A stretch of DNA of 64,000 nt. It comes from an uncultured Candidatus Saccharibacteria bacterium. Its GTDB lineage: Bacteria; Patescibacteriota; Dojkabacteria; SC72; WJKH01. Location: assembly GCA_964602665.1 (NCBI GenBank), contig CAZRRH010000004.1, positions 16,169 to 80,168 on the forward strand, given 5' to 3'. Each line of letters starts with the position of its first letter. Position 1 is the stretch's first letter. The notes below the pieces were generated by a model. The model was not told the origin of the DNA, did no database searches, and was given only the letters and a program-made list of their open reading frames with translations. A program made the translations under genes and the position numbers. Positions 14,615-34,153 of the stretch are shown here, one piece after another.

Positions 14615-14665
14615 ATTACGATTGTACAGTTTATGTTTAATTATGTCAACAAAGCATAATTAGAC

Positions 14666-14694
14666 TTGACATTTCTAGCCAATCAAGCTATAAA
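14666..14694 (+). promoter_or_regulatory. Candidate sigma70-type promoter (TTGACA-N17-TATAAA) for the holB-like/gyrB transcription unit, in the divergent pilB/holB intergenic region.
   Basis: TTGACA at 14666-14671, a 17-nt spacer, TATAAA at 14689-14694, about 40 nt upstream of the 14736 start. The AT-rich genome makes chance matches common. Confidence 0.3.
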
Positions 14695-14735
14695 TCAATA
14701 TAAGAAAGCGTTTAATCGTCGTTAATAAAATTAGA

Positions 14736-15437: not shown

Positions 15438-15452
15438 TACAATGCTAAAGTT

Positions 15453-17354: not shown

Positions 17355-17380
17355 ATTATTTAAATTTATAAGGCCGTAAT

Positions 17381-18217
17381 ATGGAAATAGAAAAAATCGT
17401 AGCAATGCCGTTTAAGAGCAAGGACTGGTGGAAAAAGCTTGGCTCAATTATGCTTGTAAGATTAATTGCGTCAATAATTATGGGCTTTGTGCTTGTTATT
17501 TTCTACATTTTATCTATTCCAGCTGTTGCACTTATCCCTGTGGACTTTTTTGACGCATATTTCTTAATATTTTTATCTGTAATATTAATATTTAGCAGTT
17601 TTTTCTGGTTAATTAGATTCTACGAGAACGCCTACATAAATAAAATCTCTCTAAATATTCTTAACAAACGAGAAGATATTCTTTCACAACATAAAAACTG
17701 GGTAAGTACAATAAAATTCTACATTAAATTATGTGTTGCACAGTTAATTGCATCTTTTCCTATATGGCTTATGTTTATAATATACACTATTACTTTACTA
17801 CTTTTGATTGTCTTAAGTTCTAATAGTGAATTTGTTAATGAAGCAACAAAATTTATAACAATCTTTAGCATGGTAATAATCTTCTGTATCCTCTTAGTAT
17901 TCTCATTTGTATACAAACTTTTTTTTCTTATGCCTGCAAGATACCGTTTTTTCAAAACTTATAAAATATCCTCTGTGCTTGAAATAGAGAAAATACTGTC
18001 AATAGGTAAGAAAACATGGAAAATAGCGATAAAATATATCCTACAAAATTATTTACTTGCTCTTATAGCATCGATAATACTATATCCGATATATTTGGTA
18101 ATATCATTAATTCCTTTTGGAGGCATGGTTGCTACGGTAATATCTTATACACCAATCCTGGTTTATAGCGGAATTTTATACGGTAATTATTTTACAGAAA
18201 TTGAGAAGGCGATATGA
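17381..18217 (+). CDS. Polytopic membrane protein, hypothetical, inserted between gyrB and gyrA.
   Basis: 278 aa, very hydrophobic with at least 6 predicted transmembrane helices. Its stop overlaps the gyrA start as ATGA at 18214-18217. Confidence 0.6.
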
Positions 18218-20895
18218 ATAATCAGAATATAATAAACAAATCCATCTCAGACGAGATGAAAGAGAGTTACCTAGATTACTCAATGTCCGTAATCGTATCT
18301 AGAGCACTACCAGATGTAAGAGATGGACTTAAGCCATCACAAAGAAGAATATTAGTCGCAATGAACGATTTGCACTTAACACCCGATGCCCATTATCGTA
18401 AATCAGCAAAAATCGCCGGCGACACATCAGGTAACTATCATCCACATGGAGAGGCCGTTATCTATCCAACAATGGTTAAAATGGCACAAGATTTCTCGTT
18501 AAGATATCCACTCGTTGACGGACAGGGAAACTTTGGCTCAATTGATGGAGATCCACCAGCCGCAATGCGTTATACAGAGGCAAAGATGGCAAAGCCTACG
18601 ATTGACATGATAACAGATATTGAAAAAGCAACTGTAACACATATTGGCAACTACGATGCAACTCGCACCGAGCCATCTGTACTTCCTGCACTTTTCCCAA
18701 ATCTTTTGTGCAATGGAACAGATGGTATTGCCGTTGGAATGGCAACAAGAATACCACCACATAATCTTGTAGAAGTTGTTACTGTACTAAGAGAAATGAT
18801 CAAAATGGGTAATAAATGGACAGGCAAAGCTCTTTACAACGAGCTTCGACTTGCCAAAGAGAGCAAAGAGAGAACACCAAGAGTTCTAAACGGATCTCCA
18901 GAAGATATTTACGAAAGCTATATACCGGCAGATACTCCTGACAGAAATATTGAGCTTGATAGAATCCGTAAACAATTATCACAAGAGCCTATCATAACTT
19001 TATACCCGGAATTTGAGTCAGAAATATCCATACAGGAGATAATGAAATTTATACCTGGACCTGATTTTCCAACCGGAGCCATCATTTACGATCAAAAAGA
19101 AATCGAGAATGCTTATGCAACAGGTCGAGGCAGAATCCTCATAAGAGCAAAAGCAGCGATTGAAGAAGATAAGAAAGGCAGATTTACAATAGTAATAACG
19201 GAAGTTCCTTACCAAGTCAACAAATCTGCAATGCAAGAGAAAATTGCTGACTTAGTAAAAGACAAGAAAATCGAAGGCATTTCAGACATAAGAGATGAGT
19301 CAAATAGAGAAGGTCTTAGAGTGGTAATCACTCTGAAAAAAGAAGCCCAGCCAAAGGTTGTATTAAACAAGCTCTTTAAGTACACTGAAATGCAGAAGTC
19401 TTACAACGCGAATATGATCGCGCTTGTGGATGGCGAGCCCCGCACATTAAACCTCAAAAACATGCTTGAGCTTTATCTTACCCACAGATTTAAAATCACA
19501 ATACGCAAATACGAATTTGAGATAGCAAGTGCAAAGTTTAGAGCTCATATTTTGGAGGGATATCTAAAAGCACTTGATGTCATAGATGAGATCATATCAA
19601 CAATAAGAGCATCAAAGACGCAGGAAGATGCTCTTAATAATTTAATCGAAAAATTTGATTTCACACAAGCGCAAGCACAGGCTATCCTAGACATGCAGCT
19701 GCGAAGATTAGCAGCCCTAGAGAGACAAAAAATAGAAGACGAGTACAAAGAAATATCAAAAAAGATAGATTTGTATACAAAAATCCTATCATCAGACACG
19801 GAGGTGTTAAAAGAAATTGATCAGGATTTAGCATACTTACAAGACAAATATTCAGATCCAAGGCGCACAAAAGTAGTAAAAGGCAAAGTTGACGAAATAA
19901 CAGTCGAGGATATTGTAGCAGAAGAAGAGACACTAATAACAATAAGCCATGCAGGATATATAAAAAGAGCATCACCACAGCTTTACAAAACTCAAAACAG
20001 AGGAGGCAAAGGAATAATTGGCGCAACGACAAAAGAAGATGATTACATAGAACATGCGATTGCATGCTCTACACATGATGAATTACTTATTTTTACAAAC
20101 TTTGGAAAGGTTTATTCATTAAAAGCTCATGAAATACCAGACTTTAAACGAACAGCAAAAGGAATTCCAATCGTAAATCTTCTACAATTATCACAAAATG
20201 AGAGCGTCACAACAGTGCTTGTAAACAATAATACAACCTGTGGAATTAATGACGATGTAAAAGCAGGTGAAAGCAATGCATTACCAGTGAAATACCTCTT
20301 TATGGCGACAAAACATGGATATGTCAAAAAAACAGATATATGCAATTTCCAAAACATTCGAAATTCAGGCCTCGTAGCAATAAAATTAAATGATCAAGAT
20401 GAGCTAGGCTGGATTGAGAAGACAACAGGTCAAGATAAAATCATGCTTATAACCAAAAAAGGTAAATGCATAAGATTTAATGAGAAAGATGTCAGAGAAA
20501 TGGGTCGAACCGCAAGAGGTGTTACAGGAATAAGGATGAAACAGGATGGAGATACTGTTATAGCAATGGTAAAAGCCAACAATGAAAATGACAAGCTTCT
20601 GGTAATATCAGAAAAAGGAATGGGGAAAACAACAAAACTTGCTCAGTACGCAGCTCAAAGAAGAGGTGGAAGCGGGGTTTTTACATTTAGGATGAAAGCT
20701 GTAAATAAAACAGGAGTACTTGTAAACGCAAAAATAGTAGACAAAAGCATAACAGAAGCTATGATAATCTCGGAAAAAGGGATAATTATTAAAATTCCTA
20801 TAACAAGTGTAAAAGAGCTCAACAGACAAACATCTGGAGTCAAAGTGATGAACATGAGTGGAGACGATAAAGTCAGCGCAATTGTGTTATTATAA
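18214..20895 (+). CDS. gyrA: DNA gyrase subunit A.
   Basis: [22 protein letters not shown], the active-site Tyr in [10 protein letters not shown], and the [27 protein letters not shown]. The C-terminal domain is a beta-pinwheel. 893 aa. Confidence 0.95.
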
Positions 20896-20904
20896 CAATT
20901 TTAA

Positions 20905-22251
20905 ATGCAAAAATTTACATTAAGAAGTGCAAAAATAGCTTCAGATTTATTTAATCCTGTACTCATTGCATTCTTTGGGGATATTATCTATATATTTGTT
21001 GGATTAGAAGCAAAGACAGTATCTCAAATAACCCGCTTAAGTATCTTCCCAATTTTGCATGCACTTTTACCATCTTTTATCCTTCTTCTGCTTATAAAAA
21101 TCGGTAAAATTTCAGATTATGAAATAACAAAAAAGAATGAAAGAACAGGCTTTTTCACTGCACTTTTAATATGTTTTGCCATTGCAACTGTGCTATCAAC
21201 AATCCAGACAGAATATTTTGTCTTAAATCTAGCAACTACAGTCACACTAGCACTCATAATCCTTATAAACACTAAGTGGAAAATTAGTGTACATACAGCT
21301 TTTGACACACTAATTTTTGGGTCATTGGCAGTGTTTGTTGACTGGCGTTTCATTTTCCTCCTTTTATTGCTCCCTTTAATTGCATGGAGTAGAGTAGTGC
21401 TCAAAAAGCACTCAGTAAAACAAACCATAGGAGGAATTTTACTTGCCTCATCAATACTTACAACTCTTGTAATCGCAAGCACATATTTATCAAATATCTC
21501 ATTTTTCAAAAAGTATTTTAATGCAATAAAAAACCGTACGAACTCAATCATATTTGAAAGAATAGAAATTGCTCCAGATCCATTAGAAACATCTCCCTCT
21601 GTTTATATTGCCCCAGTAACATCGCAAACGGACATTGAAATTAATATTCATGCAAAACCTACTCCTATATCACAAGCAAAATCAGAAGCATCAGGAACAT
21701 CTTGGTGGTCATATCCACAAGAAATTTTACCCGTACAAGGCGATCCTAACAGTTTAACTGTTATAGTGAATAAAAAATACAAACTCCCAGATACTTATGC
21801 CCCACCTGATCTTGTCAATCTCGGGTCAACAGGACTAAGATACGGGGATCAAAAGACTGGAAGAGCCGTTATGCTTGAAGACCTTACAGCAATGGCAAAA
21901 GCAGCAAGTGATACAGGCATAGATTTAGGAATCAAATCATCATATCGGTCTTATGCCCAGCAAGTCACGACATACAATTACTGGGTGTCAAAAGAGGGTG
22001 GAGATTATAACAAAGCCGATAAATATTCAGCAAGACCAGGACATAGTGAGCACCAGCTAGGCACCGCAATAGACTTCACAACTAGCGAATGTGGTGATTG
22101 TATTGGTTCAGGATTTACAGGTACAAAAGCTCAAAAATGGCTAGCGCAAAATGCTCAGACCTATGGATTTTACTTATCATATCCGTCGGGACAAGAGAGC
22201 ACAACAGGATATTCATACGAAAGTTGGCACTACAGATACAAAGGAAGATAA
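20905..22251 (+). CDS. Membrane-anchored D-alanyl-D-alanine carboxypeptidase (VanY / peptidase M15B family).
   Basis: The N-terminal 200 aa are polytopic membrane. The C-terminal domain has the VanY motifs LPDTYAPPDLV, SYRSYAQQ, RPGHSEHQLGTAIDF and ESWHYRY (Zn ligands H, D, H). Confidence 0.75.
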   Translation: MQKFTLRSAKIASDLFNPVLIAFFGDIIYIFVGLEAKTVSQITRLSIFPILHALLPSFILLLLIKIGKISDYEITKKNERTGFFTALLICFAIATVLSTIQTEYFVLNLATTVTLALIILINTKWKISVHTAFDTLIFGSLAVFVDWRFIFLLLLLPLIAWSRVVLKKHSVKQTIGGILLASSILTTLVIASTYLSNISFFKKYFNAIKNRTNSIIFERIEIAPDPLETSPSVYIAPVTSQTDIEINIHAKPTPISQAKSEASGTSWWSYPQEILPVQGDPNSLTVIVNKKYKLPDTYAPPDLVNLGSTGLRYGDQKTGRAVMLEDLTAMAKAASDTGIDLGIKSSYRSYAQQVTTYNYWVSKEGGDYNKADKYSARPGHSEHQLGTAIDFTTSECGDCIGSGFTGTKAQKWLAQNAQTYGFYLSYPSGQESTTGYSYESWHYRYKGR

Positions 22252-22254
22252 AAA

Positions 22255-23025
22255 TTAGCTTATCAGTAAAGATTTTTCACCAAATCTGCCTGCATATACT
22301 CCCATTTTCAATTCGTTTTTAAAATAGCTATTTGATATCATGCTATCAGTAAAATTCTCAACAGAAATTGGAGTCTGATTACTCCTAACAAGAAGATAAA
22401 AAACATCTGTTATAAGGCCTGTTATAATTGCTCCAGACACAATCAATGACCTAACATCCTGGGCCGACCAGTAACCATAACCACTATTTCCGACATAATC
22501 ACCCGCCAATTTATTACCCGTATCAAAAGAAGTTTTTTGATAACCTGTATCCAGCCCATGAGGAGGGTGAGTATGCATATTAAAAAGATAAATTGGACTT
22601 TCTAATTTTTTTGGCACTTTTTTGTGATAAACCTCTTTTTCTGAATATGTTTTACCGTCAATCGTAATTTTCCTACTGAAATAATCGTATTTTCCAGATC
22701 GCAATATTGGTTCATAAGTCACAACTATCTCGTTTTTACTCTGAACACTACTAGTACCACCTCTGACCACCTCAGTAAGAACAAGCTCTCCATCCACCCA
22801 AAACACAGAAATTGCTCTTTCGTGCCCATCAGATTTAGTAGATTTGTATAAATTGATAACTTTCTTCCAAAAATAGTCTGGAAAAGAAAATGCCTGTGGG
22901 AGCTCACTTAATGACGGATAAACTCCATTTGTGCGCCACTTGGTCATTTTTTTCTGCCAAGAGTTAAAAGATTCAGTCCTCAAACTGTTTTTATTTCTAA
23001 AAAGCTCTGATAAAAATTTTATCAT
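22255..23025 (-). CDS. Hypothetical protein with a possible JAB/RadC-like metal motif (HTHPPHG).
   Basis: 256 aa with no confident domain. Glu in GHERAIS followed by MHTHPPHGLDTG...SFD loosely resembles the JAMM/RadC E...HxH...S..D pattern, but the spacing is not canonical. Confidence 0.45.
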   Translation of the reverse strand: MIKFLSELFRNKNSLRTESFNSWQKKMTKWRTNGVYPSLSELPQAFSFPDYFWKKVINLYKSTKSDGHERAISVFWVDGELVLTEVVRGGTSSVQSKNEIVVTYEPILRSGKYDYFSRKITIDGKTYSEKEVYHKKVPKKLESPIYLFNMHTHPPHGLDTGYQKTSFDTGNKLAGDYVGNSGYGYWSAQDVRSLIVSGAIITGLITDVFYLLVRSNQTPISVENFTDSMISNSYFKNELKMGVYAGRFGEKSLLIS

Positions 23026-23077
23026 TTTGCTTGCTTTTAGCTTAAATTTAATTTATTATATAGCAGTGTAAAAAGTA

Positions 23078-23107
23078 TTGCAATCTTATACTTATTTGTG
23101 GTATAAT
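23078..23107 (+). promoter_or_regulatory. Candidate promoter (TTGCAA-N18-TGgTATAAT) placed so the transcript would start at or near the 23114 ATG (leaderless).
   Basis: TTGCAA at 23078-23083. The extended -10 TGGTATAAT ends at 23107. The ATG at 23114 is 7 nt downstream. Confidence 0.3.
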
Positions 23108-23113
23108 TATAGT

Positions 23114-23554
23114 ATGGACGATCAAAAAACAGACTTATCAGCAAAACTCGATAAGCAGCTGGAAACTTTCGGAGCATTTCTTCTCAAACTCGACCTCACA
23201 TTAGAACAAACGACTCAAATAAATGCATTAATGGCAGAAACCGTCGTCGCACACACAATGATAGAAATTAGCAAATTAATGACTGAAGAAGATCAGAAAA
23301 GATGGGATAAATTCATGAGCACAAATCCAACAGATGCACAACAGCTTGTTATTTTAGACGAATTTTGCAAGCGGAAAACAGGGAAGGGTATTGGTCATAT
23401 CCAAGCTAAATTGATGATAAGTTTGACAAATTCTTTTATGGAATATTTTAAAAATTTTGATAAGAATTTAGAGGCTATAAAAGAATTAAGCGACGAACAA
23501 ATTAAGGAGATTTTGAACAAATTAGCGTCAAACGATAACGAAAGCTTATTTTAA
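23114..23554 (+). CDS. Small helical hypothetical protein, first gene of the giant-protein operon.
   Basis: 146 aa from the internal Met (MDDQKTDLSAKLDKQLETF...). No motif. There is a 24-nt gap to the giant ORF. Confidence 0.5.
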   Translation: MDDQKTDLSAKLDKQLETFGAFLLKLDLTLEQTTQINALMAETVVAHTMIEISKLMTEEDQKRWDKFMSTNPTDAQQLVILDEFCKRKTGKGIGHIQAKLMISLTNSFMEYFKNFDKNLEAIKELSDEQIKEILNKLASNDNESLF

Positions 23555-23578
23555 TATAATTTAAACTTTATACCTGAA

Positions 23579-26500
23579 ATGTCAGAGTTTGTTCTTACTA
23601 GTGAAGCGGATATTCATACAAGAGAAGAAAAAAGCCCTCAAACAGCAACAGATATGCCTTCTGAGCCCAGCAAATACGCTCAAACTCAAACAGGTGTAGC
23701 CGGTCCTGATTATGAAGTTACAACAACAGAACCAATAGAGATTAATCCTGAAGTTAATCCAACAGCTTCTGAAGCACAAGCATTTCTTGACGGTGCAACG
23801 ACAGCAACCGAAGAAGAAGAGTTTAAGGAATCAGAACCAAATCCAACTGCAGCAGAGTTATTGCAGCAAGCTAGGACAAATCCAGAACAAGCCGTTCGAG
23901 CACGAGGAATCTTTGCTGTTTGGGACAAATTTGACCAATTAACTGGATCAATAAAAGAAACAACACTAAGAGTTGTCCTAGGTCAAGAAAGAGCAGACGA
24001 TCTAATACAAAAGTATAATCAATTTTCCCAGACTACGACCGGTAAACTACTTGTTATGGCAGGACAACTTGGTGTAAGTGCAGGATTAAGTGCTGTTCTT
24101 GGACCAGCAGCAATGGGTGTTTTTAGTATTCTGGCGATAAGAAGAGTCCAAAAGCAATTAGCAGAGCATAATTTTGCATCAGCTAAAGATATATTTTCCA
24201 GCAAAGAGAGTTTTGTTGCGGCAGCATTGGGATTTGGGCAATCATTTGCTTTACCAGCTTTAACCGGATTATTTCCAGCCGGCAATGTTGTTTCCACCAT
24301 TCTTATAACAGCTGGCTCAACAGCATTAAGCGTCGGAACATCTATGGCTGCGACATACGGTCTGCAAAGGCACACAATGAAAGAGTCTAGAGTTGCTATG
24401 GCTGCGGCAACAAGTCAATCAGAGGAATCACTTACTATTGTCCGTGATAAGTTACGACAAGACCCTGAATTATATACAGATGGCCAATTTAATACAGATA
24501 CTGCACTTGCCAGATTAAGAGGCATGGATCGAGAAGAAGTAGAACCTCTAGTAAGACTTTTATTGGCAACTGGCTTGAGTAATAAACAATTAAATTCTGC
24601 ATTAGAGGATTTTTTTTCCAAGGATTTTCAAGGAAAGTACCCACCACAAATAACTCGAACAGTACAAACAGCACTAGAGCTATTAGAAGTCAGAAATGTA
24701 AATGAAGAAAATTTCAACGCTTTAGAGCAAGCATATAAACTAGCACAAAGCGGAGCCGCAAGACTTATAAGAGCTCAAACAGCTATGATGTTAGGAACCA
24801 CATTAGGAAGTGTAACTAAATCTGTAGTTAGCGTAACAAAAGCATATGCTGCCCCACAAGCAAATCATGAAGCCACAGACCGCGCACAAGAAACAGGACC
24901 AAGAAGAGAGCAACTCAATCCGACAAGCCAAACAGACTTAAGTGAATTAGAAACGAGTATAAGAAAAGCAACGGGAGATAATAATGCTAAAATAATCGGA
25001 ATAGAGTATTCAACAGATGGAAAACCTTCTGTACTTGTTGATTTCAATCCTGAAGATAGAGCTAACCAGGCCGACTTAGCATATGATCTTGAAAGCGGTT
25101 CTTTTAGTAAAGCAGTGTCTGAATATGGAGCAGCTCTACTTTTAGCACAAGCTAACTACACTGATTCTAAAATTTCTTTTGATTCAGACAATGTCGTTTT
25201 ATTAGATCCGGAAAACGATGTAAGTGTAATAGCGTATAACTATACTAATGAGTCAGCAACAACTCAAGGAATTATTGGAGCAACAATCCTAGCCCCAGAC
25301 GCCAATGGCAAGCCTGCAATCCATGCTATGACCACAGATGATCTTTGGAATAAACTAGGCATAAGCCTAACAGGAACGGTTCAGACAGATGGAAGTTTAT
25401 CAGTATCAATTGAAACTACTACTGTAGCGTCAACACAATCCACAACTCAAGGACCTTTAGGTGATGGCATAACTTTTTGGACACCAGAAGGTGAATCCGC
25501 TCCAAACACAACAACCTTAACACAAAACCAACAGTGGTTAAATCTAAATATTGGCCACTTTGCTGAGGCAGCAAAAGGAAATCCGGATCTTCTACCAATT
25601 CTACAAATATTGAGATCATATGATAAAGATGGTGATGGAATAGCAGAGCTTCTGCTTAGAGGAGGAGAAGGGCGCGAATGGGGCGATGTTAACAGGAATC
25701 TGCTTCAAACACTAATTAATCGAGGATATAGAGGTGATGATCTTGTTATTGCTTTTGTTAGTTCGCTTGAAAAAGCAAGAAAGATGCCCGGAATACTTCA
25801 GAGTACAGGAAATGCTACCTCTTTTAACACATTTATTAGTAATGCTACATCAGATTTCAGCGGATCAGCATCTAGCTCAGTAACCGCTCAAGCCCAAGCA
25901 GTAACCTCATCTGCGTTAGTTCAAAGGTTAATTGAACATAATTCTAGTAGTACTTCGGGTAAGATCGCACCTTCTTTTGTCCTAGAAAATATTCCAGAGC
26001 TTGCCATTACAGAAATAGATTCAGGACAAGTGACATCTGCTACTGATGCAAATACAAATAATAATGGCCCATGGCGACTAATGGCAGGAAAAGAAGACTT
26101 GACTCAAAGAGTTTTAAGAACCTATGAGCCCGACGGCGAAAGGCCTTTCGCAGTATTATCACCAAAAGATGCTGCAATTTCTTCGACTCCGATTATTATA
26201 GCACATGGTTCTTACGAGGACGCTGTCTATATGCCAACCTTAGCGGCTGGAAATTACGAGATGCCAGAAAATGTTGCTAGAGAACTTAGAATCGGAGCTG
26301 GTACATTGCAAATACCCCAAAATGGAGGCAGTACAGTTACTTTTGCCAATATACCTCCAGCAGCGGCACCTGCGCCCGCAACTCCAGAGAGTCGTAGTAA
26401 AGAAGATATCGCTAGAGCTTTAGTCTATATGGGTGGTGCAGGAGTATTTTTAACAGGATTACCTGCACTTGGATTACTTATTAGGAGCAAGATTCTTCGA

Positions 26501-28804
26501 AACAAAGAAACTGCCCAAGAACAAACAAGACAAAGCTATCCTGAAGTAATACAAAAATTCATTGATCCAAGACTGTCAATTGACAAAAAGCCTCTTCCTA
26601 ATGAAGTAAAAGAAGAATTGGCAAAAATGACAGCAGAACAGCTTAAGAAATTTGCACAACAAAACGGGTTAGAATATCCAGAAGCAGAGACTGCTACTGA
26701 GAAAATCGCAGAAATTTTAACAATAGCATTAATCGAAAAATTAGGAACACTTGAAGCTGCAAACAGAAACTTAACAGAAACAAGAGAAAGACTTTATGAA
26801 TCGCATAAAAAATACATCGAAAAATTAGAAGAACAAGCACAAAAAAGAGGCACCGCAGGTCAACTTGTCAATCTCAACCCAAATGCACACAAAATCACAA
26901 TAAGCGATATACATGGCGACATTCATAAAGCACAGTTATCAATTGCAACAGCAATAAGTAAGTTGATTGAAGGCGGGTTTATTGAAGATAATCAACTTGG
27001 TAGCTTTGATCGAACATTAGATCCAGCTAATCCCGAAAACCTTGACGCTTATATGGAGTTAGCAACCAAATTAAGAAAAGTAGATCGGATAGAATTAATA
27101 TTTGAAGGTGATCTTGTACACACGGAAACCGCAGAAGCAAAAAAACGATATCATGATCTTTGGGACGTCTATACAGAAAGAGATACAAAAACATTGACGC
27201 AAGCGACAATGCAAATACAAAGAGAAATTGCTCTTTCAGAAACCGTTTTTAGTTTTCTAGCTAATTTATTTCAAGAAAGCGACAAGGGTATTTATGTACT
27301 TCTTGGAAATCACGACTTGATGGAAGCAGAAATCGGGAAATCTGCTCCCAATGGCTTTGATGCTAACTTATATAATGTATTTGGATTAGCAATAAATCCA
27401 TCAGATTTTAATAAATTACCTCAGTTAGAACAAGCTCTTAGAATAAGAGGAAATGGTAACTCAATAAATTTAGATAAATTTCTTGAACTTGATATAAGAC
27501 AAAGAGCTAGCTCACCATTGTTGTGCACTGGAGAAGCAAAACAGTTTGATTCTTCCGCGCAGGTCGTTGATATTGTAGTTACTCACGATATGCCAAAATC
27601 TAATGTAGTCGCCTTAGCTTTACAAAAAATATTATCAGGACAAAAATTAGGATTTAATGAATTAAGTGATTTTGTCATGAACAGGGAAGGATCCAATTAC
27701 GATTCTGGTGAAATTCCAGAGTTCCCTGCGACCACAGATACTTTAAGAGCAGCGTTAAATCTTGATCCAAGCCGAAAATTAGATATTGTCGTAGGTCACA
27801 CTTCTCGCCCTGATAGCATTAAAATACCAGGAAGAAATGCTGAAATTTACCGAACAGATTTTCAAAGTCTACCAACTGCATATAAGATTTACACAAGCTC
27901 TACTTTTAGAGTCACAGGTTCAAGTAGTACAACAGCACATCCCACTACAGCATCTACAACAACACAGTCAACAAACGCTGCAACAGCAACAACAAGGGGT
28001 ACGGCAACAGTACGCAATAGATGGGAGGGAACAAATCTTGCAGAGGCCTTACCAGAAGCATCTGCTACTCGAGCAGCTTTCCTAGAAAATTACGATTTTA
28101 AAAGAACCGCTTTTCCAACTCAAGCTGCATTTATTAATGCTAGAACTGAATTAGAGAAGGAAATTAAAGAAAATTATCCCGACAGACTTGATCCAAGAAG
28201 AATCGATTTCACAAGACCCGATATGGTCCAAGGATGGTTAATTGAAAGAGTTTCAGAATCAGAAGCAAAAGAAGAAGAGCATTATCAATCAACACCAACC
28301 ATTACCGCACTGCTATCTTGGCTTAATACAAGAAGGTTAAGTGACGATTGCACAAAAGAGGAAAGAAGAGCCCTTATGGCAATAATGTCAAGAATTCATA
28401 ATATTGAAGGAGCGCTTGATGCCCTTCCATTAGCTGCTTCCTTATATGACTCACTTGATAACGGTCTCATAGCGAACAATATCAGAAGAGCTTATCAAAG
28501 ATATCTAGGTGATGATCTAACAATAAATCAAGAACAAGTCAAAAAACACAGAGAAAACCGACGCGCAGCTACGGCTTACTGGAAGTACCTTCTTGATAAG
28601 CTTAGAAGCCAGCAAACTGACGATCCTGTATCAGCTCTAACACAAACAGAACAACTTGATTATGTTATACTTAGTTCTATGGGAATTCCAAGTGAACCAG
28701 CTAAATTGCACCAATGGAAAACGCAAGAGATTTTTCATGACAGAACAAAACGATGGTTTGTTTATCTGACAGATAATAATTTTTTATTCGGAGTTGATAA
28801 ATAG
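23579..28804 (+). CDS. Giant 1741-aa protein. It has transmembrane helices, low-complexity Thr/Ser/Ala tracts and an internal calcineurin-like metallophosphoesterase motif set. It is a putative membrane-associated effector or toxin-like protein.
   Basis: Hydrophobic helices: VMAGQLGVSAGLSAVLGPAAMGVFSILAI, FALPALTGLFPAGNVVSTILITAGSTALSVGTSMAA, VYMGGAGVFLTGLPALGLLI. Ordered phosphoesterase motifs: ITISDIHGD (DxHGD), IFEGDLVHTE (GDxV), LLGNHDL (GNHD), VVTHDMP. Confidence 0.75.
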   Translation: MSEFVLTSEADIHTREEKSPQTATDMPSEPSKYAQTQTGVAGPDYEVTTTEPIEINPEVNPTASEAQAFLDGATTATEEEEFKESEPNPTAAELLQQARTNPEQAVRARGIFAVWDKFDQLTGSIKETTLRVVLGQERADDLIQKYNQFSQTTTGKLLVMAGQLGVSAGLSAVLGPAAMGVFSILAIRRVQKQLAEHNFASAKDIFSSKESFVAAALGFGQSFALPALTGLFPAGNVVSTILITAGSTALSVGTSMAATYGLQRHTMKESRVAMAAATSQSEESLTIVRDKLRQDPELYTDGQFNTDTALARLRGMDREEVEPLVRLLLATGLSNKQLNSALEDFFSKDFQGKYPPQITRTVQTALELLEVRNVNEENFNALEQAYKLAQSGAARLIRAQTAMMLGTTLGSVTKSVVSVTKAYAAPQANHEATDRAQETGPRREQLNPTSQTDLSELETSIRKATGDNNAKIIGIEYSTDGKPSVLVDFNPEDRANQADLAYDLESGSFSKAVSEYGAALLLAQANYTDSKISFDSDNVVLLDPENDVSVIAYNYTNESATTQGIIGATILAPDANGKPAIHAMTTDDLWNKLGISLTGTVQTDGSLSVSIETTTVASTQSTTQGPLGDGITFWTPEGESAPNTTTLTQNQQWLNLNIGHFAEAAKGNPDLLPILQILRSYDKDGDGIAELLLRGGEGREWGDVNRNLLQTLINRGYRGDDLVIAFVSSLEKARKMPGILQSTGNATSFNTFISNATSDFSGSASSSVTAQAQAVTSSALVQRLIEHNSSSTSGKIAPSFVLENIPELAITEIDSGQVTSATDANTNNNGPWRLMAGKEDLTQRVLRTYEPDGERPFAVLSPKDAAISSTPIIIAHGSYEDAVYMPTLAAGNYEMPENVARELRIGAGTLQIPQNGGSTVTFANIPPAAAPAPATPESRSKEDIARALVYMGGAGVFLTGLPALGLLIRSKILRNKETAQEQTRQSYPEVIQKFIDPRLSIDKKPLPNEVKEELAKMTAEQLKKFAQQNGLEYPEAETATEKIAEILTIALIEKLGTLEAANRNLTETRERLYESHKKYIEKLEEQAQKRGTAGQLVNLNPNAHKITISDIHGDIHKAQLSIATAISKLIEGGFIEDNQLGSFDRTLDPANPENLDAYMELATKLRKVDRIELIFEGDLVHTETAEAKKRYHDLWDVYTERDTKTLTQATMQIQREIALSETVFSFLANLFQESDKGIYVLLGNHDLMEAEIGKSAPNGFDANLYNVFGLAINPSDFNKLPQLEQALRIRGNGNSINLDKFLELDIRQRASSPLLCTGEAKQFDSSAQVVDIVVTHDMPKSNVVALALQKILSGQKLGFNELSDFVMNREGSNYDSGEIPEFPATTDTLRAALNLDPSRKLDIVVGHTSRPDSIKIPGRNAEIYRTDFQSLPTAYKIYTSSTFRVTGSSSTTAHPTTASTTTQSTNAATATTRGTATVRNRWEGTNLAEALPEASATRAAFLENYDFKRTAFPTQAAFINARTELEKEIKENYPDRLDPRRIDFTRPDMVQGWLIERVSESEAKEEEHYQSTPTITALLSWLNTRRLSDDCTKEERRALMAIMSRIHNIEGALDALPLAASLYDSLDNGLIANNIRRAYQRYLGDDLTINQEQVKKHRENRRAATAYWKYLLDKLRSQQTDDPVSALTQTEQLDYVILSSMGIPSEPAKLHQWKTQEIFHDRTKRWFVYLTDNNFLFGVDK

Positions 28805-28809
28805 ATAGC

Positions 28810-28838
28810 TTGACACATTGTAATTTTTATGATAGAAT
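28810..28838 (+). promoter_or_regulatory. Candidate sigma70-type promoter TTGACA-N17-TAGAAT upstream of the coiled-coil gene.
   Basis: TTGACA at 28810-28815, a 17-nt spacer, TAGAAT at 28833-28838, 33 nt upstream of the 28871 ATG. Confidence 0.3.
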
Positions 28839-28870
28839 TATGTTATTTAAGTTTTTAAATATTTTTTATT

Positions 28871-30604
28871 ATGACAAGTGAATCACAAGGTCAACCATCC
28901 TTAGCCACTTCAACAGGAGCACCAGAAGCCACGGGTCCAATAAGCACTTCTAATTTGCAAGTTACTCCAAGTGTACCTAGAACACCGAGCACACCTCCTT
29001 TTCTTCTTGGTGATGCGGCACTAGAAGCTGTAAGACATGAGGCCGGAAAATCACCAGAAGAAGTTGCTAATGCAATAGCTGCAGATGAGAATTTGACTCC
29101 AGCTGCCCTCGCACCAAAGGATAGAGCTCGCAGAGAACTTGAAAGAACTTTTTCACCTGATTTAGAATTGACCAGAAGATTCACAGAAACAGCAGCAAAA
29201 TGTTTTAGCGAAGTAAATGGAGTTCTGGAAGTAAGCAATAATGCAGGAAGAAGAAAACTTGAAACTTCTAACCAAATAACTGCCTTAGAAGATGAAGCAG
29301 CAAGTCTTACCGAAACAAGAAATAGAGTTTCAGTAAGAAAAACAGGTCTTAATGCGATTTTATTACATTATTCTGGTACGAAATCCCAATTAGAATCTCT
29401 TTTATTGCTACCATCAGAACAGAGATCTGCACTTTCTGGACAACTCAGTATACCGGAAAAATCAATCGAATTGCTTGGATTCTCGACGACAGAAGCTATT
29501 CTTAACTTGGACGATGAAACACTTAGATATTCATTAGAGCTTGTTGAAAATGAAATAAATGGCTTAGGTGATAAAATATCAGCTGCAGATACTGAGATTA
29601 CTGAGCGTGAGGCTCAAATTACTGAAATTACTAATCGAACTGAAATAGAAAAAGGTGTAGCAAGAGCTTATGAAATGCTTGAAGCTCAAACAGCAAGTAC
29701 TTTTGACACAGTAGCAAAAAGAGTTCGCGAAGCAAATGATAAGCAAAAAGCTTTTAGTAATGCAGCTAAAGAGTATTCTAGAGCCGAAGCTGCTATAATA
29801 ACCGAATTTGGTCCAGATGTACTCACAAGTCAAGATGCTTTATACGATGCAATGGAGGCACTTACTGGGAACCCTGCTGGTGTTGCTAGAGTTGCTAAAA
29901 ATCTACGATTACAAATTGACCAAGCAGTGGCTTTCCTTTCAATTGCGACAATTCCAGTTCAAGGATCTTCAGAAGAACCTCCTCTCACACCAGCACAGAT
30001 TGAAGCTGAAGAAGCAAAGATTGCTAATATGAGAGCACGTCTTGCAAATATAGAAGGAATTGAAAACGCTGTTGCAAGACAACCAGAGGATATAATTGGA
30101 CAATTTGGCATAGATAGAGGAACTCTCTCAACTGAACAACAATCAAAACTTGAAGTTTTACTAATAGATTTAGCTACTCGAATGGAAACAAAAATTGCAG
30201 CAAGGGAAGAACTAGAGATAGCAATACAAGATATAGAATTAATTACTAGAAGAACAAAGACATACAATGAAGAAATTAGAGCAGCAATGGAAAATACAAG
30301 GACTGAAATAGAAGCTTTAAGAGTAGAAACAGAACGAGCAGCAGCAGAGGCAGCAGCAGCAGAGGCAGCAGCAGCAACAGCGGAAGAGGAAAGACGTAGA
30401 GTTCAAGCGGTACAAAACGCTCCTGAATATATTGCCCTACAGACTGAAAACGAGAGAAAAATTAGGGAGTTAGTGGAAGAGAATGCTGCGCTTGCAGCAA
30501 GTGCTGGCGAAGGAGCAAAGGCTAAAGTTAAGAGAAGAGTTGGAGGATTCTTAAGATCTATGTGGAATAAGCTTCCTAAAGTAGACATTAAATGGCAGTC
30601 ATAA
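28871..30604 (+). CDS. Coiled-coil protein (577 aa) with a Pro/Ser/Thr-rich N-terminus and a C-terminal Ala/Glu repeat.
   Basis: Long heptad-like Glu/Ala/Leu-rich sequence (TEITEREAQITEITNRTEIEK; AAAEAAAAEAAAATAEEERRR). The DNA carries a tandem GCAGCAGAGGCAGCAGCA repeat at about 30340-30385. Confidence 0.7.
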   Translation: MTSESQGQPSLATSTGAPEATGPISTSNLQVTPSVPRTPSTPPFLLGDAALEAVRHEAGKSPEEVANAIAADENLTPAALAPKDRARRELERTFSPDLELTRRFTETAAKCFSEVNGVLEVSNNAGRRKLETSNQITALEDEAASLTETRNRVSVRKTGLNAILLHYSGTKSQLESLLLLPSEQRSALSGQLSIPEKSIELLGFSTTEAILNLDDETLRYSLELVENEINGLGDKISAADTEITEREAQITEITNRTEIEKGVARAYEMLEAQTASTFDTVAKRVREANDKQKAFSNAAKEYSRAEAAIITEFGPDVLTSQDALYDAMEALTGNPAGVARVAKNLRLQIDQAVAFLSIATIPVQGSSEEPPLTPAQIEAEEAKIANMRARLANIEGIENAVARQPEDIIGQFGIDRGTLSTEQQSKLEVLLIDLATRMETKIAAREELEIAIQDIELITRRTKTYNEEIRAAMENTRTEIEALRVETERAAAEAAAAEAAAATAEEERRRVQAVQNAPEYIALQTENERKIRELVEENAALAASAGEGAKAKVKRRVGGFLRSMWNKLPKVDIKWQS

Positions 30605-30620
30605 GCTTATCATTCACGAT

Positions 30621-30650
30621 AAAAAAGAGCCAGTGAAAACTGGCTCTTTT
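30621..30650. terminator. Bidirectional Rho-independent terminator between the convergent coiled-coil and recombinase genes.
   Basis: AAAAAGAGCCAGT-GAAA-ACTGGCTCTTTTT is a 9-bp perfect stem with a GAAA loop, flanked by an A-run and a T-run. Confidence 0.6.
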
Positions 30651-30681
30651 TACAAATTTTAAAATAATTACTCAATCATAC

Positions 30682-32043
30682 TCACTTCAATGGATGCCTC
30701 TTCTTATACTCCTGCTCGGCTAACTTATCAGAAGCATGAACATATCGATTAGTAGTATCAAGACTCTCATGTCCCAAAAGAAGCTGCAAAGCTACAGCTG
30801 AAGCTCCATTCTCAGCTAAATAAGTTGCGAAACCGTGACGCAGACTGTGCGCCGAAGTTGGGACTAAAATACCGGCTCTACGCCTATACTGAGCAATTTT
30901 CTCTTGAAAATAGTTAGTCGAAAGCTTGCAAGGCTTAAGTCTATAAGTTTTGCTATAATTTCCCTTTATAACACCATTTTCCTTAGGCTCATCATCTTTA
31001 TTATTATTTCTATCCTTACCAAAAATACCTCTGCCACTAAAAGGGATAAAAAGAGCAGGGGAGTGCAGTGCATCAACTAAATCAGCTCTTCTTATATCTT
31101 CCACAAGGGACAGAGCAGACAGAGATTTCCCATCATAATCATCAGCCAAATCACCAAGAAAATCTTCAATCATTTTAATAACCTTTTTATGTTTCACGAA
31201 TAGTCGCTCGTTTGTTTCACGATTAGTAGTTTTTGAGCCATTAATTTCCCATTTAAATCTAATAATGAGGTACAAATCAAGCCATCTAAGAGCCCTTGGT
31301 GTTAAGTATACAAACCTCTGTTTACGGCCCTTACCAGTTATAAATAGCTTTCCCTCGACATTTACATCGGATATTGACAAGCTCATAAGCTCGCTAATTC
31401 GCATACCACTTGCAAAAAGCATCTCAAGCATGGCTCGATTTCGCATACCAACTCGTTTATCTTTCTCAAACTGCGTTGGGAATTCGATTAACTTAACAAT
31501 GTCGTCAAAATCTGCAAGCTGTTTTTTCTTTTTTGGACTCTTGATCATTTTTATACTATCAGGAGCCAATGGATACGGCTGATCCATTTCAATTAGGTAT
31601 CTCAGATATGACCTTATAGCTGACAACATCCGGTTGGCTGATTTCGCATCCAGTTCGTGATCAGCTTGATGTCTAAAATCGGCGCTCTTACCAGTATAAA
31701 CCTTCTTATATATCTCTTTTAAGACATCTAAGGAGACCTTTTGTTGATCATCGTTTAAATTAGGGGCATCAGGGCTCGCTGTGGTGTTTTGTATTGTAAC
31801 AACAAGCCTTTTTCTCATATTAGCCAAGTCAACAAGGTGATCACAGTTCCTAAGATACCCTTTATATACATCAATATCTTGTTTTGATAACTTAGCAAAG
31901 GGAATTTTATGATTTTGCAGAAATAGGGCAAAGATACTCAAATCACGGGCGTAGTTAATAACAGTTTGTATGCTGTAATTATTATTATGCAAAGAGAGTA
32001 AAAAATCATCTTGTGAAGGTAATTTAATAATTGATCCCGCCAT
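30682..32043 (-). CDS. Tyrosine site-specific recombinase (XerC/XerD/integrase family) with an internal insertion.
   Basis: The N-terminal SAM-like core-binding domain is LSLHNNNYSIQTVINYARDLSIFALFLQ. The catalytic region has RISEL, HSLRHGFATYLAENG, LLGHESLDTTNRYVH (R..HxxR..Y). At 453 aa it is about 120 aa longer than typical Xer proteins. Confidence 0.8.
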   Translation of the reverse strand: MAGSIIKLPSQDDFLLSLHNNNYSIQTVINYARDLSIFALFLQNHKIPFAKLSKQDIDVYKGYLRNCDHLVDLANMRKRLVVTIQNTTASPDAPNLNDDQQKVSLDVLKEIYKKVYTGKSADFRHQADHELDAKSANRMLSAIRSYLRYLIEMDQPYPLAPDSIKMIKSPKKKKQLADFDDIVKLIEFPTQFEKDKRVGMRNRAMLEMLFASGMRISELMSLSISDVNVEGKLFITGKGRKQRFVYLTPRALRWLDLYLIIRFKWEINGSKTTNRETNERLFVKHKKVIKMIEDFLGDLADDYDGKSLSALSLVEDIRRADLVDALHSPALFIPFSGRGIFGKDRNNNKDDEPKENGVIKGNYSKTYRLKPCKLSTNYFQEKIAQYRRRAGILVPTSAHSLRHGFATYLAENGASAVALQLLLGHESLDTTNRYVHASDKLAEQEYKKRHPLK

Positions 32044-32263
32044 TAGGTTTTACTTAATAAGGTTAAATGTTATAGCAATTATAAACTACCCTTTGGCAGA
32101 ATGTCAAGACCGCATATAATGTTGATTATACTCGGTCATATCTGCTGTGTTTTAGTATGCTTTAATAAAAAGAGAAGTACCTACTCTAAGGAGTATTTGT
32201 AAGGTACCAATTTGTGTAATATTTATTTAAATCGTTTTTATTAAACTAGAAAACAATATCGTC

Positions 32264-32380
32264 AAAAAAGGCTGTTGTAGCGCACTAAATACTATAGGTT
32301 AAGCTGAAAGTTATCCACACCGTTGTTTACTATGGGATGTTCCACGCTGCTCCCCTTCCCTTACCATGCCAACAGCAATA
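32264..32380 (-). ncRNA. Candidate small structured RNA in the 317-bp non-coding gap. It has a 7-bp terminal helix followed by a U6 tract. Its class is unresolved; an SRP-RNA-like GGGAGCAGC motif is present.
   Basis: On the minus strand, GCUGUUG at the 5' end pairs with CAACAGC about 95 nt downstream, immediately followed by UUUUUU. The internal GGUAAGGGAAGGGGAGCAGCG resembles the SRP RNA domain IV GGAAGCAGC. It overlaps the last 6 codons of the 32361..33110 ORF. Confidence 0.2.
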
Positions 32381-33110
32381 AAATAATAAAAAACAGCATC
32401 GCTTGTATAAAGCTAAGTATTCTAAATTTCTTCTCGTTAAGGATAAACATTGATATAACAGGCAAAAACGCAAGAAATTCAATCTTCTCGGTAAAAAGCA
32501 TCCCCGCAAGAAATAGCCCTAGAACACTATACGATATCAGGGCACTTTCTTTAAAAATTAGCTCCCTACTCACCTCTAAGTTGACAAAATACATTATTGT
32601 AACAACAAAAACAAGCAAAAACTCAATTAACGCAATAAAATATATAGGCAAATTACTGTTTAATACTGCAAATGAGCCAAAATACACAGTCGCCAGTGAG
32701 AAAATAAAAGAACTACTTTTAGCAACATTTACAAGTGGAAGAGGTTTCTCGGTCCATACGACAAATATATTTACCATCGAGAAAAGTACATAATTAACGA
32801 ACACGAACATTGACACAACAATAAAAAACAGTGCTGATTCATATACTCGTCCAAAACTTGTGTAAAAAAACAAAAAGAGAAAAAACACCTGGGCAAAAAG
32901 CATCAAAGCGCCTTGAAATATAAACAAAATCGCCTTTTTATTTAATACAAAATTAGTTATCCATAACAATCCGATAAATCCAAAGGCCCCAAATCCTAGT
33001 GAGTACAACAAAATTTGATATATTTCGACTGTTTCTCTTTGCAAAAGCTTGATTATAAACATGGCGATACCAATAATCAATGCAACTGCTATCATTTTTG
33101 GCTTTTTCAT
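32361..33110 (-). CDS. Polytopic membrane protein, hypothetical.
   Basis: 249 aa with at least 7 hydrophobic helices. No motif. Confidence 0.55.
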   Translation of the reverse strand: MKKPKMIAVALIIGIAMFIIKLLQRETVEIYQILLYSLGFGAFGFIGLLWITNFVLNKKAILFIFQGALMLFAQVFFLFLFFYTSFGRVYESALFFIVVSMFVFVNYVLFSMVNIFVVWTEKPLPLVNVAKSSSFIFSLATVYFGSFAVLNSNLPIYFIALIEFLLVFVVTIMYFVNLEVSRELIFKESALISYSVLGLFLAGMLFTEKIEFLAFLPVISMFILNEKKFRILSFIQAMLFFIILLLLAW

Positions 33111-33121
33111 AATTTCATCTT

Positions 33122-34153
33122 TTACAACTTAGAAATTATTAATTTCTTCCCCTTCTCTGTTACTACCCTACCTTTTGGCGTCCTCATAAGCAGCCCCATC
33201 TGTATAAGAAAAGGCTCGTAAACATCCTCTACCGTCTCAGCTTCCTCAGAGATGGATGCACAAATCGTTCCAAGTCCAACAGGCCCTCCATCGAAATCTT
33301 CTATTATGGAGACAAGTATTCTTCTATCTATTTCCTCAAGCCCCATTTCATCAATCTGGAGCAGTTCTAGAGCCTTTTTTACAACACTTATACCGATATT
33401 ATCTGCCCCTCCATCATACTCAGCAAAATCACGAACTCTTTTTAGCAATCTAAGAGCAATTCTAGGCGTTCCACGAGATCTACAAGCAAGTTCCCTAATA
33501 GCGTTATCATCAATCTTGATTCTCCAAAGATCTTTTGCCCTCATAAGCACATCACATAAGTCCTCGTTACCAAGATAATCTAATCTCTGCACCAAGCCGA
33601 ATCTGTCTCTCATTGGATTACTTATCATCCCTGCTCTTGTAGTCGCTGCCACGAGTGTAAACGGCTTAAGATCAAGCCTAATCGTCTTAGCAGAAATACC
33701 CTTGCCGATAAGAATATCAAGCTTTTGGTCTTCCATTGCTGGATAAAGTATCTCTTCAACACTTTTACTAAGCCTATGTATTTCATCAATAAAAAGGACA
33801 TCTCCTGTATTAAGATTTGTCAATATTGTAGCAAGATCTCCTTGTTTTTTTATCACAGGGCCACTCGTTATGACTATATTAGCCGACATTTCTTTTGCAA
33901 TAGCAATTGCAAATGTTGTCTTACCAAGTCCTGGAGGGCCATAAAAGAGTATGTGATCAACTGCTTCTTTTCTTTTTCTTGCAGACTCGATCATCATTAA
34001 CAATCTCTTCTTCTCATTAAGACGACCCGCTATTTCATCAAAGGAGCTTGGCCTTATGCTATTAAGCTCTAATGTGTCTTCTAGACGAGGTTTAGAGGCA
34101 ACAAGCTTTTTACTACTTCGATTCAATTTTAACTCTGCTTTATCTCTAATCAT
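33122..34153 (-). CDS. ruvB: Holliday junction branch-migration helicase RuvB.
   Basis: The AAA+ motifs ILFYGPPGLGKTT, DVLFIDEIHRL and sensor residues are present. 343 aa. Confidence 0.95.
   Translation of the reverse strand: MIRDKAELKLNRSSKKLVASKPRLEDTLELNSIRPSSFDEIAGRLNEKKRLLMMIESARKRKEAVDHILFYGPPGLGKTTFAIAIAKEMSANIVITSGPVIKKQGDLATILTNLNTGDVLFIDEIHRLSKSVEEILYPAMEDQKLDILIGKGISAKTIRLDLKPFTLVAATTRAGMISNPMRDRFGLVQRLDYLGNEDLCDVLMRAKDLWRIKIDDNAIRELACRSRGTPRIALRLLKRVRDFAEYDGGADNIGISVVKKALELLQIDEMGLEEIDRRILVSIIEDFDGGPVGLGTICASISEEAETVEDVYEPFLIQMGLLMRTPKGRVVTEKGKKLIISKL

Follow-up and report, generated by a model that had tools for sequence, protein, structure and literature searches.

We examined a 64,000-nucleotide stretch of DNA (hereafter, the window; positions 16,169 to 80,168 of contig CAZRRH010000004.1, assembly GCA_964602665.1) from an uncultured bacterium deposited as Candidatus Saccharibacteria and assigned by the GTDB to Dojkabacteria, and in it the genes that lie between gyrA and xer, the gene of a tyrosine recombinase. 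These genes encode a VanY-type carboxypeptidase (VanY), a 256-aa protein (p256) and, in one operon, a small helical protein (p158), a 1741-aa membrane protein (the giant) and a 577-aa coiled-coil protein (cc577). A first-pass annotation, made from the sequence alone, had proposed all of these open reading frames (ORFs), which were found where it had placed them, and had taken positions 22255-32043 for a candidate accessory segment with a recombinase at its boundary. We found that the p158-giant-cc577 operon, together with VanY and p256, holds a fixed place between gyrA and a housekeeping xer, and that the unit of exchange has other limits (Table 1): it is a cassette that is exchanged whole when the conserved genes on either side recombine homologously, and not by site-specific recombination.

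Table 1. Coordinates of the features of the locus (positions in the window)
Feature	Position	Strand	Remark
Recombination cassette, 11.4 kb	19932-31270		gyrA 3' third, VanY, p256, p158, giant, cc577, xer 3' part
VanY-type carboxypeptidase	20905-22251	+	Conserved gene inside the cassette
p256	22255-23025	-	Conserved hypothetical protein; divergent to the p158-giant-cc577 operon
p158, small helical protein	23078-23554	+	Gene callers: ATG at 23114, 146 aa
Giant, 1741 aa, polytopic membrane protein, orphan family	23579-28804	+	Starts 24 nt downstream of p158
Gly/Ala-rich hydrophobic cluster, giant residues 156-255	24044-24343	+	74-84% identity between alleles, vs 55% overall
Last transmembrane segment, giant residues 947-973	26417-26497	+	Equivalent position in L001, P0003 and L067
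Metallophosphoesterase (MPE) module, giant residues ~1104-1412	26888-27814	+	Pfam PF00149, 24.1 bits
C-terminal domain, giant residues ~1480-1741	28016-28801	+	Kept in the distant ortholog
cc577, coiled coil, 577 aa	28871-30604	+	
Bidirectional intrinsic terminator	30622-30651		Between convergent cc577 and xer
Xer-type tyrosine recombinase, 453 aa	30682-32043	-	3' 40% falls within the cassette

The order gyrA-VanY-p256-p158-giant-coiled coil-xer is kept in the related loci L001, L002, L061, L062, L064 and L069 (L numbers denote the loci that were compared), and in a genus-level relative, GCA_015657915.1 (L065/L067), whose GyrA and RuvB are each 77% identical to those of the window. The 131-kb contig of L001, which bears the giant P0002, stays collinear with the window over the stretch between pilB and rluD. 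The block was present at the same chromosomal position in every relative found, with no presence/absence polymorphism. In L065, an extra gene (14709-16100) for a 463-aa beta-helix/dockerin-like protein stands between mem256 and ruvB, where the window is uninterrupted.

The recombinase that closes the locus matches the XerC model (TIGR02224, 173.9 bits, E=5e-51) and the XerD model (TIGR02225, 165.4 bits, E=2e-48), in both cases below the equivalog cut-off because of inserts in the protein, and also Pfam Phage_integrase (E=2.5e-31), with an N-terminal SAM-like domain. It shares with XerC/XerD/XerS-type recombinases the SAM-like and catalytic domains and the R, HxxR and H...Y residues, and the catalytic segments GMRISEL, HSLRHGF and LGHESLDTTNRYVH are seen in its sequence; unlike those proteins, it carries two extra segments, of ~60 and ~85 residues, which bring it to 453 aa, so that its initial description as a 453-aa tyrosine recombinase with an insertion was accurate. 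A scan with the recombinase that used one genome per species returned 58 loci, in which nearly every label read Candidatus Dojkabacteria (WS6) or, wrongly, Saccharibacteria, and the match was full length (residues 5-453, 42-50% identity) and included the extra segments. The order rluD-lytR-(~830 aa)-yebC-ruvC-ruvA-ruvB-mem249-xer was essentially invariant in the loci scanned (50+ Dojkabacteria genomes). Because the matches are full length and the ruvCAB synteny is fixed across the class, the recombinase is the housekeeping Xer of the class Dojkabacteria, and not the integrase of an island.

Exchange of an 11.4-kb cassette

In comparison with L001, the backbone DNA of the window is 95-100% identical. 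From ~20.0 kb the identity falls to 75-85% (VanY, p256 and p158), then to 65-68% in the giant, it is undetectable in cc577, and it recovers only at ~31.2 kb, within xer. No other valley of divergence in the 25 kb compared is as large as this one, and its centre lies on the two fastest genes, those of the giant and cc577. At the protein level, identity to L001 is 96.6% for GyrA, 89% for VanY, 83% for p256, 81% for p158, 55% for the giant, 29% for cc577 and 88% for Xer, followed by 100% for mem249, RuvA and RuvC, and 99% for RuvB and YebC. The synonymous divergence (dS) is 1.1-1.9, i.e., saturated, between gyrA codon ~600 and xer codon ~300, compared to 0.005-0.25 outside. Within the two boundary genes, dS is 1.1-2.0 in gyrA codons 601-893, where the nonsynonymous divergence (dN) is 0.04-0.05, and 1.1 in xer codons 301-453; elsewhere dS is 0.1-0.4. 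The dN/dS ratio inside the valley is 0.04-0.09 for VanY, p256 and p158 (0.04 for VanY and 0.07 for p256) and rises to 0.24 in the giant and 0.64 in cc577.

Three-way comparisons place the limits of the exchanged unit. L002, which comes from another sample, differs from the window by two single-nucleotide polymorphisms in 11.4 kb, from 19909/19932 to 31270/31297, and its flanks on both sides of this cassette are 82-91% identical to the window (three-way sliding identity). Up to 19931, the left flank of L064 agrees with the window at 100% identity; inside the cassette L064 carries the other allele and its identity is 74-93%, and L001 is 97-99% identical right of 31270 and 65-80% inside. The breakpoints coincide across the comparisons, at 19910-19932 (in gyrA) and at 31270-31298 (in xer), and the cassettes form two allele groups: A, consisting of the window and L002, and B, consisting of L001, L062 and L064, which are 92-94% identical among themselves. 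The window genome is an L064/L001-type backbone with an 11.4-kb cassette that is also present in a different backbone. Since the same cassette occurs in two backbones whose flanks differ by 10-18%, and divergent cassettes occur in near-identical backbones, the exchange is by homologous recombination; the position of a breakpoint inside the xer coding sequence likewise makes the mechanism homologous, not site-specific. The horizontal acquisition that had been proposed for the segment thus holds as far as movement between lineages is concerned and fails as far as delivery by the recombinase is concerned.

It should be noted that the backbone itself is mosaic compared to L001. Over 14600-20000 and 32970-33900, stretches of 99-100% identity are interspersed with 300-nt patches, such as 16401-16700 and 33570-33869, in which it is 87-93%, and backbone dS spans 0.005 (rluD, mem249) to 0.25 (ruvB). 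This mosaicism suggests frequent small recombination imports in the population.

Proteins encoded within the cassette

The giant matched two of 5.8 billion protein clusters, itself and P0002 (full length, 55% identity), which agrees with the initial impression of a block of poorly conserved genes. When residues 1040-1741 were used in an exhaustive HMMER search of 1.84 billion cluster representatives, which cover ~15 billion proteins, the only matches were the giant itself, P0003 (a fragment of allele B), P0004 (134 aa from the C-terminus of the genus-level ortholog) and one spurious repeat protein. Two metagenome scans, a viral scan and a tblastn search of phages yielded only allelic fragments and one genus-level ortholog, a search of PDB sequences with the C-terminal profile of the giant gave no match, and we found nothing specific in the literature on giant proteins of Dojkabacteria or Patescibacteria. 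The ORF is intact in six lineages, and its dN/dS is below one (0.24).

A Kyte-Doolittle scan located hydrophobic segments at residues 156-190, 213-255 and 947-973, and Ser/Thr/Ala/Gln-rich tracts occur at residues 741-780 and 1441-1485; the "at least three hydrophobic helices" and the low-complexity tracts of the first-pass annotation are therefore real features of the protein. Between alleles, the Gly/Ala-rich hydrophobic cluster is the best conserved part, residues 1551-1650 (60-76%) are among the better conserved ones, and conservation is lowest, at 18-50%, in residues 1-100, 401-450, 501-650 and 751-1000. The C-terminal domain is 39% identical to its counterpart in L065/L067 and to P0004 (E=4e-16).

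The phosphoesterase motif set that had been read in the giant was upheld. The isolated domain of the window scored 24.1 bits (E=5.7e-5) against Pfam Metallophos, above the gathering cut-off of 21.5 bits; the domain of the sister allele (17.7 bits) and the full-length giant (19.5 bits) fell below it. The motifs follow each other in the order D1110-x-H1112, G1177-D1178, G1243-N1244-H1245-D1246, H1336 and G1406-H1407, and the seven metal/catalytic residues (D1110, H1112, D1178, N1244, H1245, H1336 and H1407) are invariant between alleles at a domain identity of 62%. The domain score and the invariance of the motif residues together indicate that the motif set is more than a chance occurrence. The giant shares the ordered DxH / GD / GNHD / H / GH signature with the calcineurin-like metallophosphoesterases (PF00149, including PPP, Mre11/SbcD, ApaH and 5'-nucleotidases), but differs from this superfamily in two ~65-residue inserts, between motifs I-II and II-III, in being embedded in a 1741-aa membrane protein, and in the absence of an NCBIfam or PDB sequence match. 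Its motifs are also mixed, with an Mre11-like motif II (GDLVH) and PPP-like motifs I (DIHG) and V (GHT), and fit no one subfamily. An AlphaFold2 (AF2) model of the region, built on a two-sequence alignment, had a mean predicted local distance difference test score (pLDDT) of 41, with a strand predicted before each motif, and an hhalign comparison of the MPE alignment to lambda phosphatase aligned only the GNH[DE] motif (probability 0.5%).

The L067 ortholog is an intact 1234-aa ORF with the same N-terminal region, hydrophobic cluster, large middle and last transmembrane segment, and it is without the MPE: the last transmembrane segment is followed by a (DDTEPDD)x4 linker and then by the C-terminal domain (ungapped in L067, 6947-10648, which equals L065 6595-10402). 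The absence of the MPE from this ortholog indicates that the module is optional and placed between the last transmembrane segment and the conserved C-terminal domain. The same acidic repeat produced a scaffold gap in the other assembly (L065). The giant is supported as a real membrane protein with a metallophosphoesterase-type module, which is probably active as a phosphatase or phosphodiesterase. An SbcCD-like reading, i.e., a metallophosphoesterase paired with a coiled coil, was considered and rejected: cc577 has no ATPase head and shows only chance-level similarity to SMC coiled coils.

The heptad periodicity of cc577 is the strongest among the window proteins (33% of residues in a crude test, in which shuffled sequences averaged 11% and did not exceed 27%), and the AEAAAA repeat tract is present, in line with its earlier assignment as a coiled coil. 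The protein is 29% identical to that of the sister allele and 25% identical to that of L065, alignments to the proteins in the equivalent position extend over its full length at 25-31% identity, and, fast as it evolves (dN/dS 0.64), it keeps a basic C-terminal tail. The strong bidirectional terminator claimed downstream of cc577 corresponds to a hairpin with a 13-bp stem (-19.7 kcal/mol, z=-7.5 vs shuffles), an A-run before it and a T-run after it, which a simple terminator scan did not pick up.

The suggestion that p256 is JAB/RadC-like fared less well. Residues E69, H151-x-H153 (HTH) and S187-x-x-D190 (SAQD) are invariant in five orthologs, down to 57% identity, but the spacer from HxH to S is 33 aa compared to ~7 in the JAMM motif E...HxH-x7-S-xx-D, no JAB, RadC or Prok-JAB profile matched at E<0.1, and Pfam, NCBIfam, PADLOC and PHROG gave no match; the JAB-like reading of p256 remains at the level of a putative motif only. 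VanY (Pfam VanY, E=8e-36) is a conserved gene within the cassette and is predicted to be a membrane-anchored D-Ala-D-Ala carboxypeptidase. In the window lineage it has 448 aa, and its VanY domain is preceded by ~7 N-terminal hydrophobic segments and by a PAP2 match that stays below the threshold (21.5 bits vs 27.2); in other Dojkabacteria loci the VanY-like gene encodes just 263-281 aa and lies 8-10 kb from xer.

The site beyond xer across Dojkabacteria

p158 belongs to a Dojkabacteria-wide family (hidden Markov model (HMM), E=1.3e-33) of all-helical proteins of ~135-160 aa, with at least 100 members and no Pfam match; 100 of these members are all named "hypothetical". An AF2 model of p158 based on a 50-sequence alignment (pLDDT 87, predicted template modelling score 0.81) has seven helices and no structural relative in PDB or BFVD. 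Past the 3' end of xer, the nearest gene belongs to the p158 family in 32 of the 44 loci, and in 37 a member is among the first three; these genes are always tightly coupled to genes of large membrane proteins, with gaps of 2-25 nt. In L004, L010, L011, L055 and L056 a p158-like gene stands directly 5' of the gene of a 1262-1830-aa protein.

The large proteins themselves are not recognisably related. Giants of the L056 type showed no homology to the window giant by phmmer or HMM (hhalign probability 2.5-9%), and the C-terminal region shared by the class-wide large proteins had an hhalign probability of 0.2% against the giant and cc577. What the window giant and the class giants do share is their position and a layout in which 600-1000 residues separate two long hydrophobic segments from a further one. 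The 3' site of xer nearly always has a p158-family gene coupled to a large, sequence-unrelated protein with multiple hydrophobic segments.

Other large genes occur at the same site. A gene pair encoding ~1160-1226 and ~275 aa, on the strand opposite to the p158-like operon and after variable genes, is found in ~20 Dojkabacteria genomes; it lies 2-6 kb beyond xer in L005, L006, L013, L016, L018, L019, L024, L025, L027, L031-L033, L041, L045, L047, L050, L053, L054 and L058. Another family of large proteins at the xer-adjacent site has glycosyltransferase domains (GT2, GT4, GT1), as in L050 (8742-12737), L028 (11401-14799), L043 (11317-14745) and L056 (17639-19582), and in three genomes a 1132-1331-aa glycosyltransferase protein directly adjoins xer and is preceded by a different small protein of 153-155 aa.

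Interpretation of the locus, and the region upstream of xer

We consider it likely that the locus is a replacement-type hypervariable locus of the chromosome of Dojkabacteria, a class of the candidate phyla radiation (CPR), and not a mobile element. The giant would be an integral envelope protein composed of the Gly/Ala-rich hydrophobic cluster, a ~690-residue soluble region and one further membrane pass, with the MPE module and the conserved C-terminal domain on the other face of the membrane. p158 may be a dedicated helical partner of the giant (a chaperone or an adaptor), cc577 may be a membrane-associated coiled-coil scaffold, and the three together would form an envelope complex. If such a complex is partly exposed to partner cells, hosts or phages, new variants would be favoured and imports of whole divergent alleles would be retained. 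The phosphoesterase module would be an optional enzymatic add-on, because an ortholog is without it.

The closest analogues that we know are replacement flexible genomic islands, which occupy the same position in all strains, have identical clusters in different clonal frames, are exchanged by homologous recombination and show an excess of synonymous change in the boundary genes (Lopez-Perez, Martin-Cuadrado & Rodriguez-Valera 2014, PMC4033161). The window locus is likewise fixed in position, with content that is divergent or different between close strains; an identical cassette is found in different frames (window and L002), different cassettes are found in the same frame (window and L064), and the excess divergence of the boundary genes gyrA and xer is mostly synonymous. 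The two differ in content, which in the window is not a glycosylation, capsule or S-layer cluster but an orphan giant with a coiled-coil protein and a helical partner, and in the organism, which here is a CPR bacterium; exposure of the proteins at the surface and phage pressure are presumed. Classical cases of locus switching are those of the capsule (cps, dexB-aliA) and of the O-antigen (galF-gnd). Giant proteins of ultra-small or host-dependent bacteria (e.g., Omnitrophota) are similar by description only: there as here, a very large ORF is found in a small genome of a probably host-dependent organism and a role in host interaction is suspected; the window giant differs in being polytopic with an MPE.

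Several observations weigh against a surface-exposed, hypervariable locus. The giant, whose surface exposure we infer, has no signal peptide and no recognised adhesin or surface domain, and its topology is ambiguous: the positive-charge bias around the last transmembrane segment favours a cytoplasmic C-terminal side in the window and allele B, and a cytoplasmic N-terminal side in L067 and in the L056-type giants. The MPE fold lacks structural support in the model of low pLDDT, and there was no PDB sequence match to it. For both the giant and cc577 dN/dS is below one, which is compatible with weak constraint instead of diversifying selection. The smaller low-identity patches of the backbone mean that recombination is frequent anyway, and one import event is no proof of selection. 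Finally, all sequences are metagenome assemblies, in which strain-chimeric contigs could mimic recombinants; this concern is mitigated, rather than removed, by the coincidence of breakpoints in independent contigs and assemblers.

Some of these observations would also be expected if the operon encoded a fast-evolving intracellular or housekeeping envelope scaffold, for example, a lineage-specific division/cytoskeletal complex or a transmembrane signalling phosphatase, in which weak constraint acts on low-complexity and coiled-coil sequence and the swap is one neutral import among many. The dN/dS values below one, the coiled coil of cc577 and the low-complexity tracts of the giant, the other small recombination patches in the backbone, the charge bias that puts the MPE and the C-terminal domain of the window giant in the cytoplasm, and the vertical retention of the locus since the genus-level split are all consistent with it. 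We regard this explanation as unlikely, however. The two fastest genes form the centre of a valley of divergence that has no equal in size over the 25 kb compared, a near-identical cassette fixed in a backbone of 82-91% identity needs recent spread across lineages, and class-wide replacement by unrelated large membrane proteins is atypical of housekeeping machinery.

It is much less probable that the recombinants are assembly artefacts, produced by contigs that cross between co-occurring strains in the conserved gyrA and xer genes, even with data that consist entirely of metagenome-assembled genomes or metagenome contigs and with a contig of L002 that is short and ends soon beyond both junctions. 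Strains of 82-91% identity near the junctions rarely share exact words of assembler length on both sides, and independent comparisons yield the same two breakpoints. The junction-spanning, recombinant Xer protein is found on three contigs of different pipelines, one of them an independent Logan assembly that links ruvCAB-mem249-xer-cc577-giant, which speaks against a one-off chimera. The left flank of L064 is 100% identical to the window and yet is joined to allele B.

An integrative accessory island, inserted by the adjacent tyrosine recombinase and carrying a secreted or membrane effector, is the model that follows from the first-pass annotation, and we consider it highly improbable. The recombinase at one end, the orphan genes and a slightly raised overall GC content speak in its favour. 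As had been noted by eye for the giant, overall GC (0.390 for the giant and 0.397 for cc577, compared to a mean of 0.355) and Ala content (10.5% and 14.7%, compared to 6.2%) are indeed higher; the GC excess, however, is wholly at codon positions 1+2 (z=+2.2 for the giant and +3.1 for cc577), and GC at third codon positions (GC3) is below that of the rest of the window and lowest there (z=-1.8 and -3.1). The raised GC of the two genes reflects an Ala/Thr/Glu-rich protein composition, and GC3 is native or low, not foreign. The recombinase is class-conserved, full length and in fixed ruvCAB synteny, and a breakpoint falls inside its own coding sequence, as the other does in gyrA, so that it does not mark the boundary of a mobile element. 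All five contigs of close relatives, like the genus-level relative, whose gyrA is at 77%, carry these genes with their order unchanged. Synteny in relatives together with native composition is what the first-pass annotation itself had named as refuting its proposal, and on that count the island reading fails. The att-like direct repeats expected at the ends of the segment were not found (only 70-80% matches at chance level), there is no tRNA gene in the 64 kb, and searches for mobile, phage or defence relatives gave no PADLOC, PHROG, phage-genome or viral-contig match. A defence-system reading was also rejected, with no PADLOC matches.

We give hardly any credence to a polymorphic toxin or contact-dependent effector with the MPE or the C-terminal domain as payload and a neighbouring immunity gene, which the size of the giant, its embedded enzymatic module and its hypervariability between strains might evoke, given that divergence is spread over the whole giant with a better conserved C-terminal domain (whereas a toxin of this kind would keep its trunk and swap its tip), that the MPE is internal and optional, that the downstream gene encodes a 577-aa coiled-coil protein and not a small immunity protein, and that there were no PADLOC or toxin-family matches.

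A replacement-type hypervariable locus thus remains our preferred reading. It implies that cassette switching by homologous recombination operates in the reduced genomes of the CPR, and that synteny should be checked before a tyrosine recombinase beside odd genes in such genomes is called an integrase. In the prevailing view, CPR/Patescibacteria live attached to other cells, and, to our knowledge, the proteins of that interface are almost unknown. The locus offers a concrete and testable candidate, with a fixed xer-adjacent site marked by a conserved small partner gene, at which large membrane proteins are replaced or exchanged between lineages like the surface antigens of cultivated bacteria. 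Cassette exchange is already known in cultivated and marine bacteria; what is new is that in a CPR lineage it involves a giant membrane protein of an orphan family, and that the site beside xer is variable throughout the class and has a conserved partner, p158, whose predicted fold is without a solved relative.

A more far-reaching proposal, which we offer as a speculation and ourselves doubt, is that the 3' site of xer encodes an undescribed class-wide envelope apparatus, in which the p158-family partner and interchangeable giant polytopic proteins form the host-attachment or uptake interface of an episymbiont, kept diverse by host and phage pressure through whole-cassette recombination. The giants may then share a layout of two long hydrophobic hairpins, a large soluble region, a last transmembrane segment and a tail. 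If this were true, the window lineage would have gained a surface metallophosphoesterase, useful, e.g., for scavenging host nucleotides or phosphate.

The intergenic region upstream of xer, between mem249 and xer (in the window and in L003-L058), is conserved in length and in sequence across the class. It is 317 nt long in the window (32044-32360) and 424-469 nt long in 39 of the 41 other loci, and it contains GTAGGGG and two to three CCYATAGT repeats. A block ATGTTATGATT..AACCGAGTATAATC..CCTTATATGCGGT resembles an extended -10 promoter, and in other genomes CCCCTACTT, complementary to the first block, is found just before xer. Rfam gave no match to the region, which may serve in regulation, act as a dif-like site or encode an unknown RNA. 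It contains one perfect DnaA box, TTATCCACA (32311-32319, + strand of the window), the sole one nearby; an origin of replication (oriC) was rejected, there being no cluster of such boxes. In two Dojkabacteria genomes (L034 and L050), the yebC-ruvC-ruvA stretch, elsewhere invariant, is interrupted upstream of ruvC/ruvA by 4-6 paralogous genes in tandem, each of ~190-200 aa.

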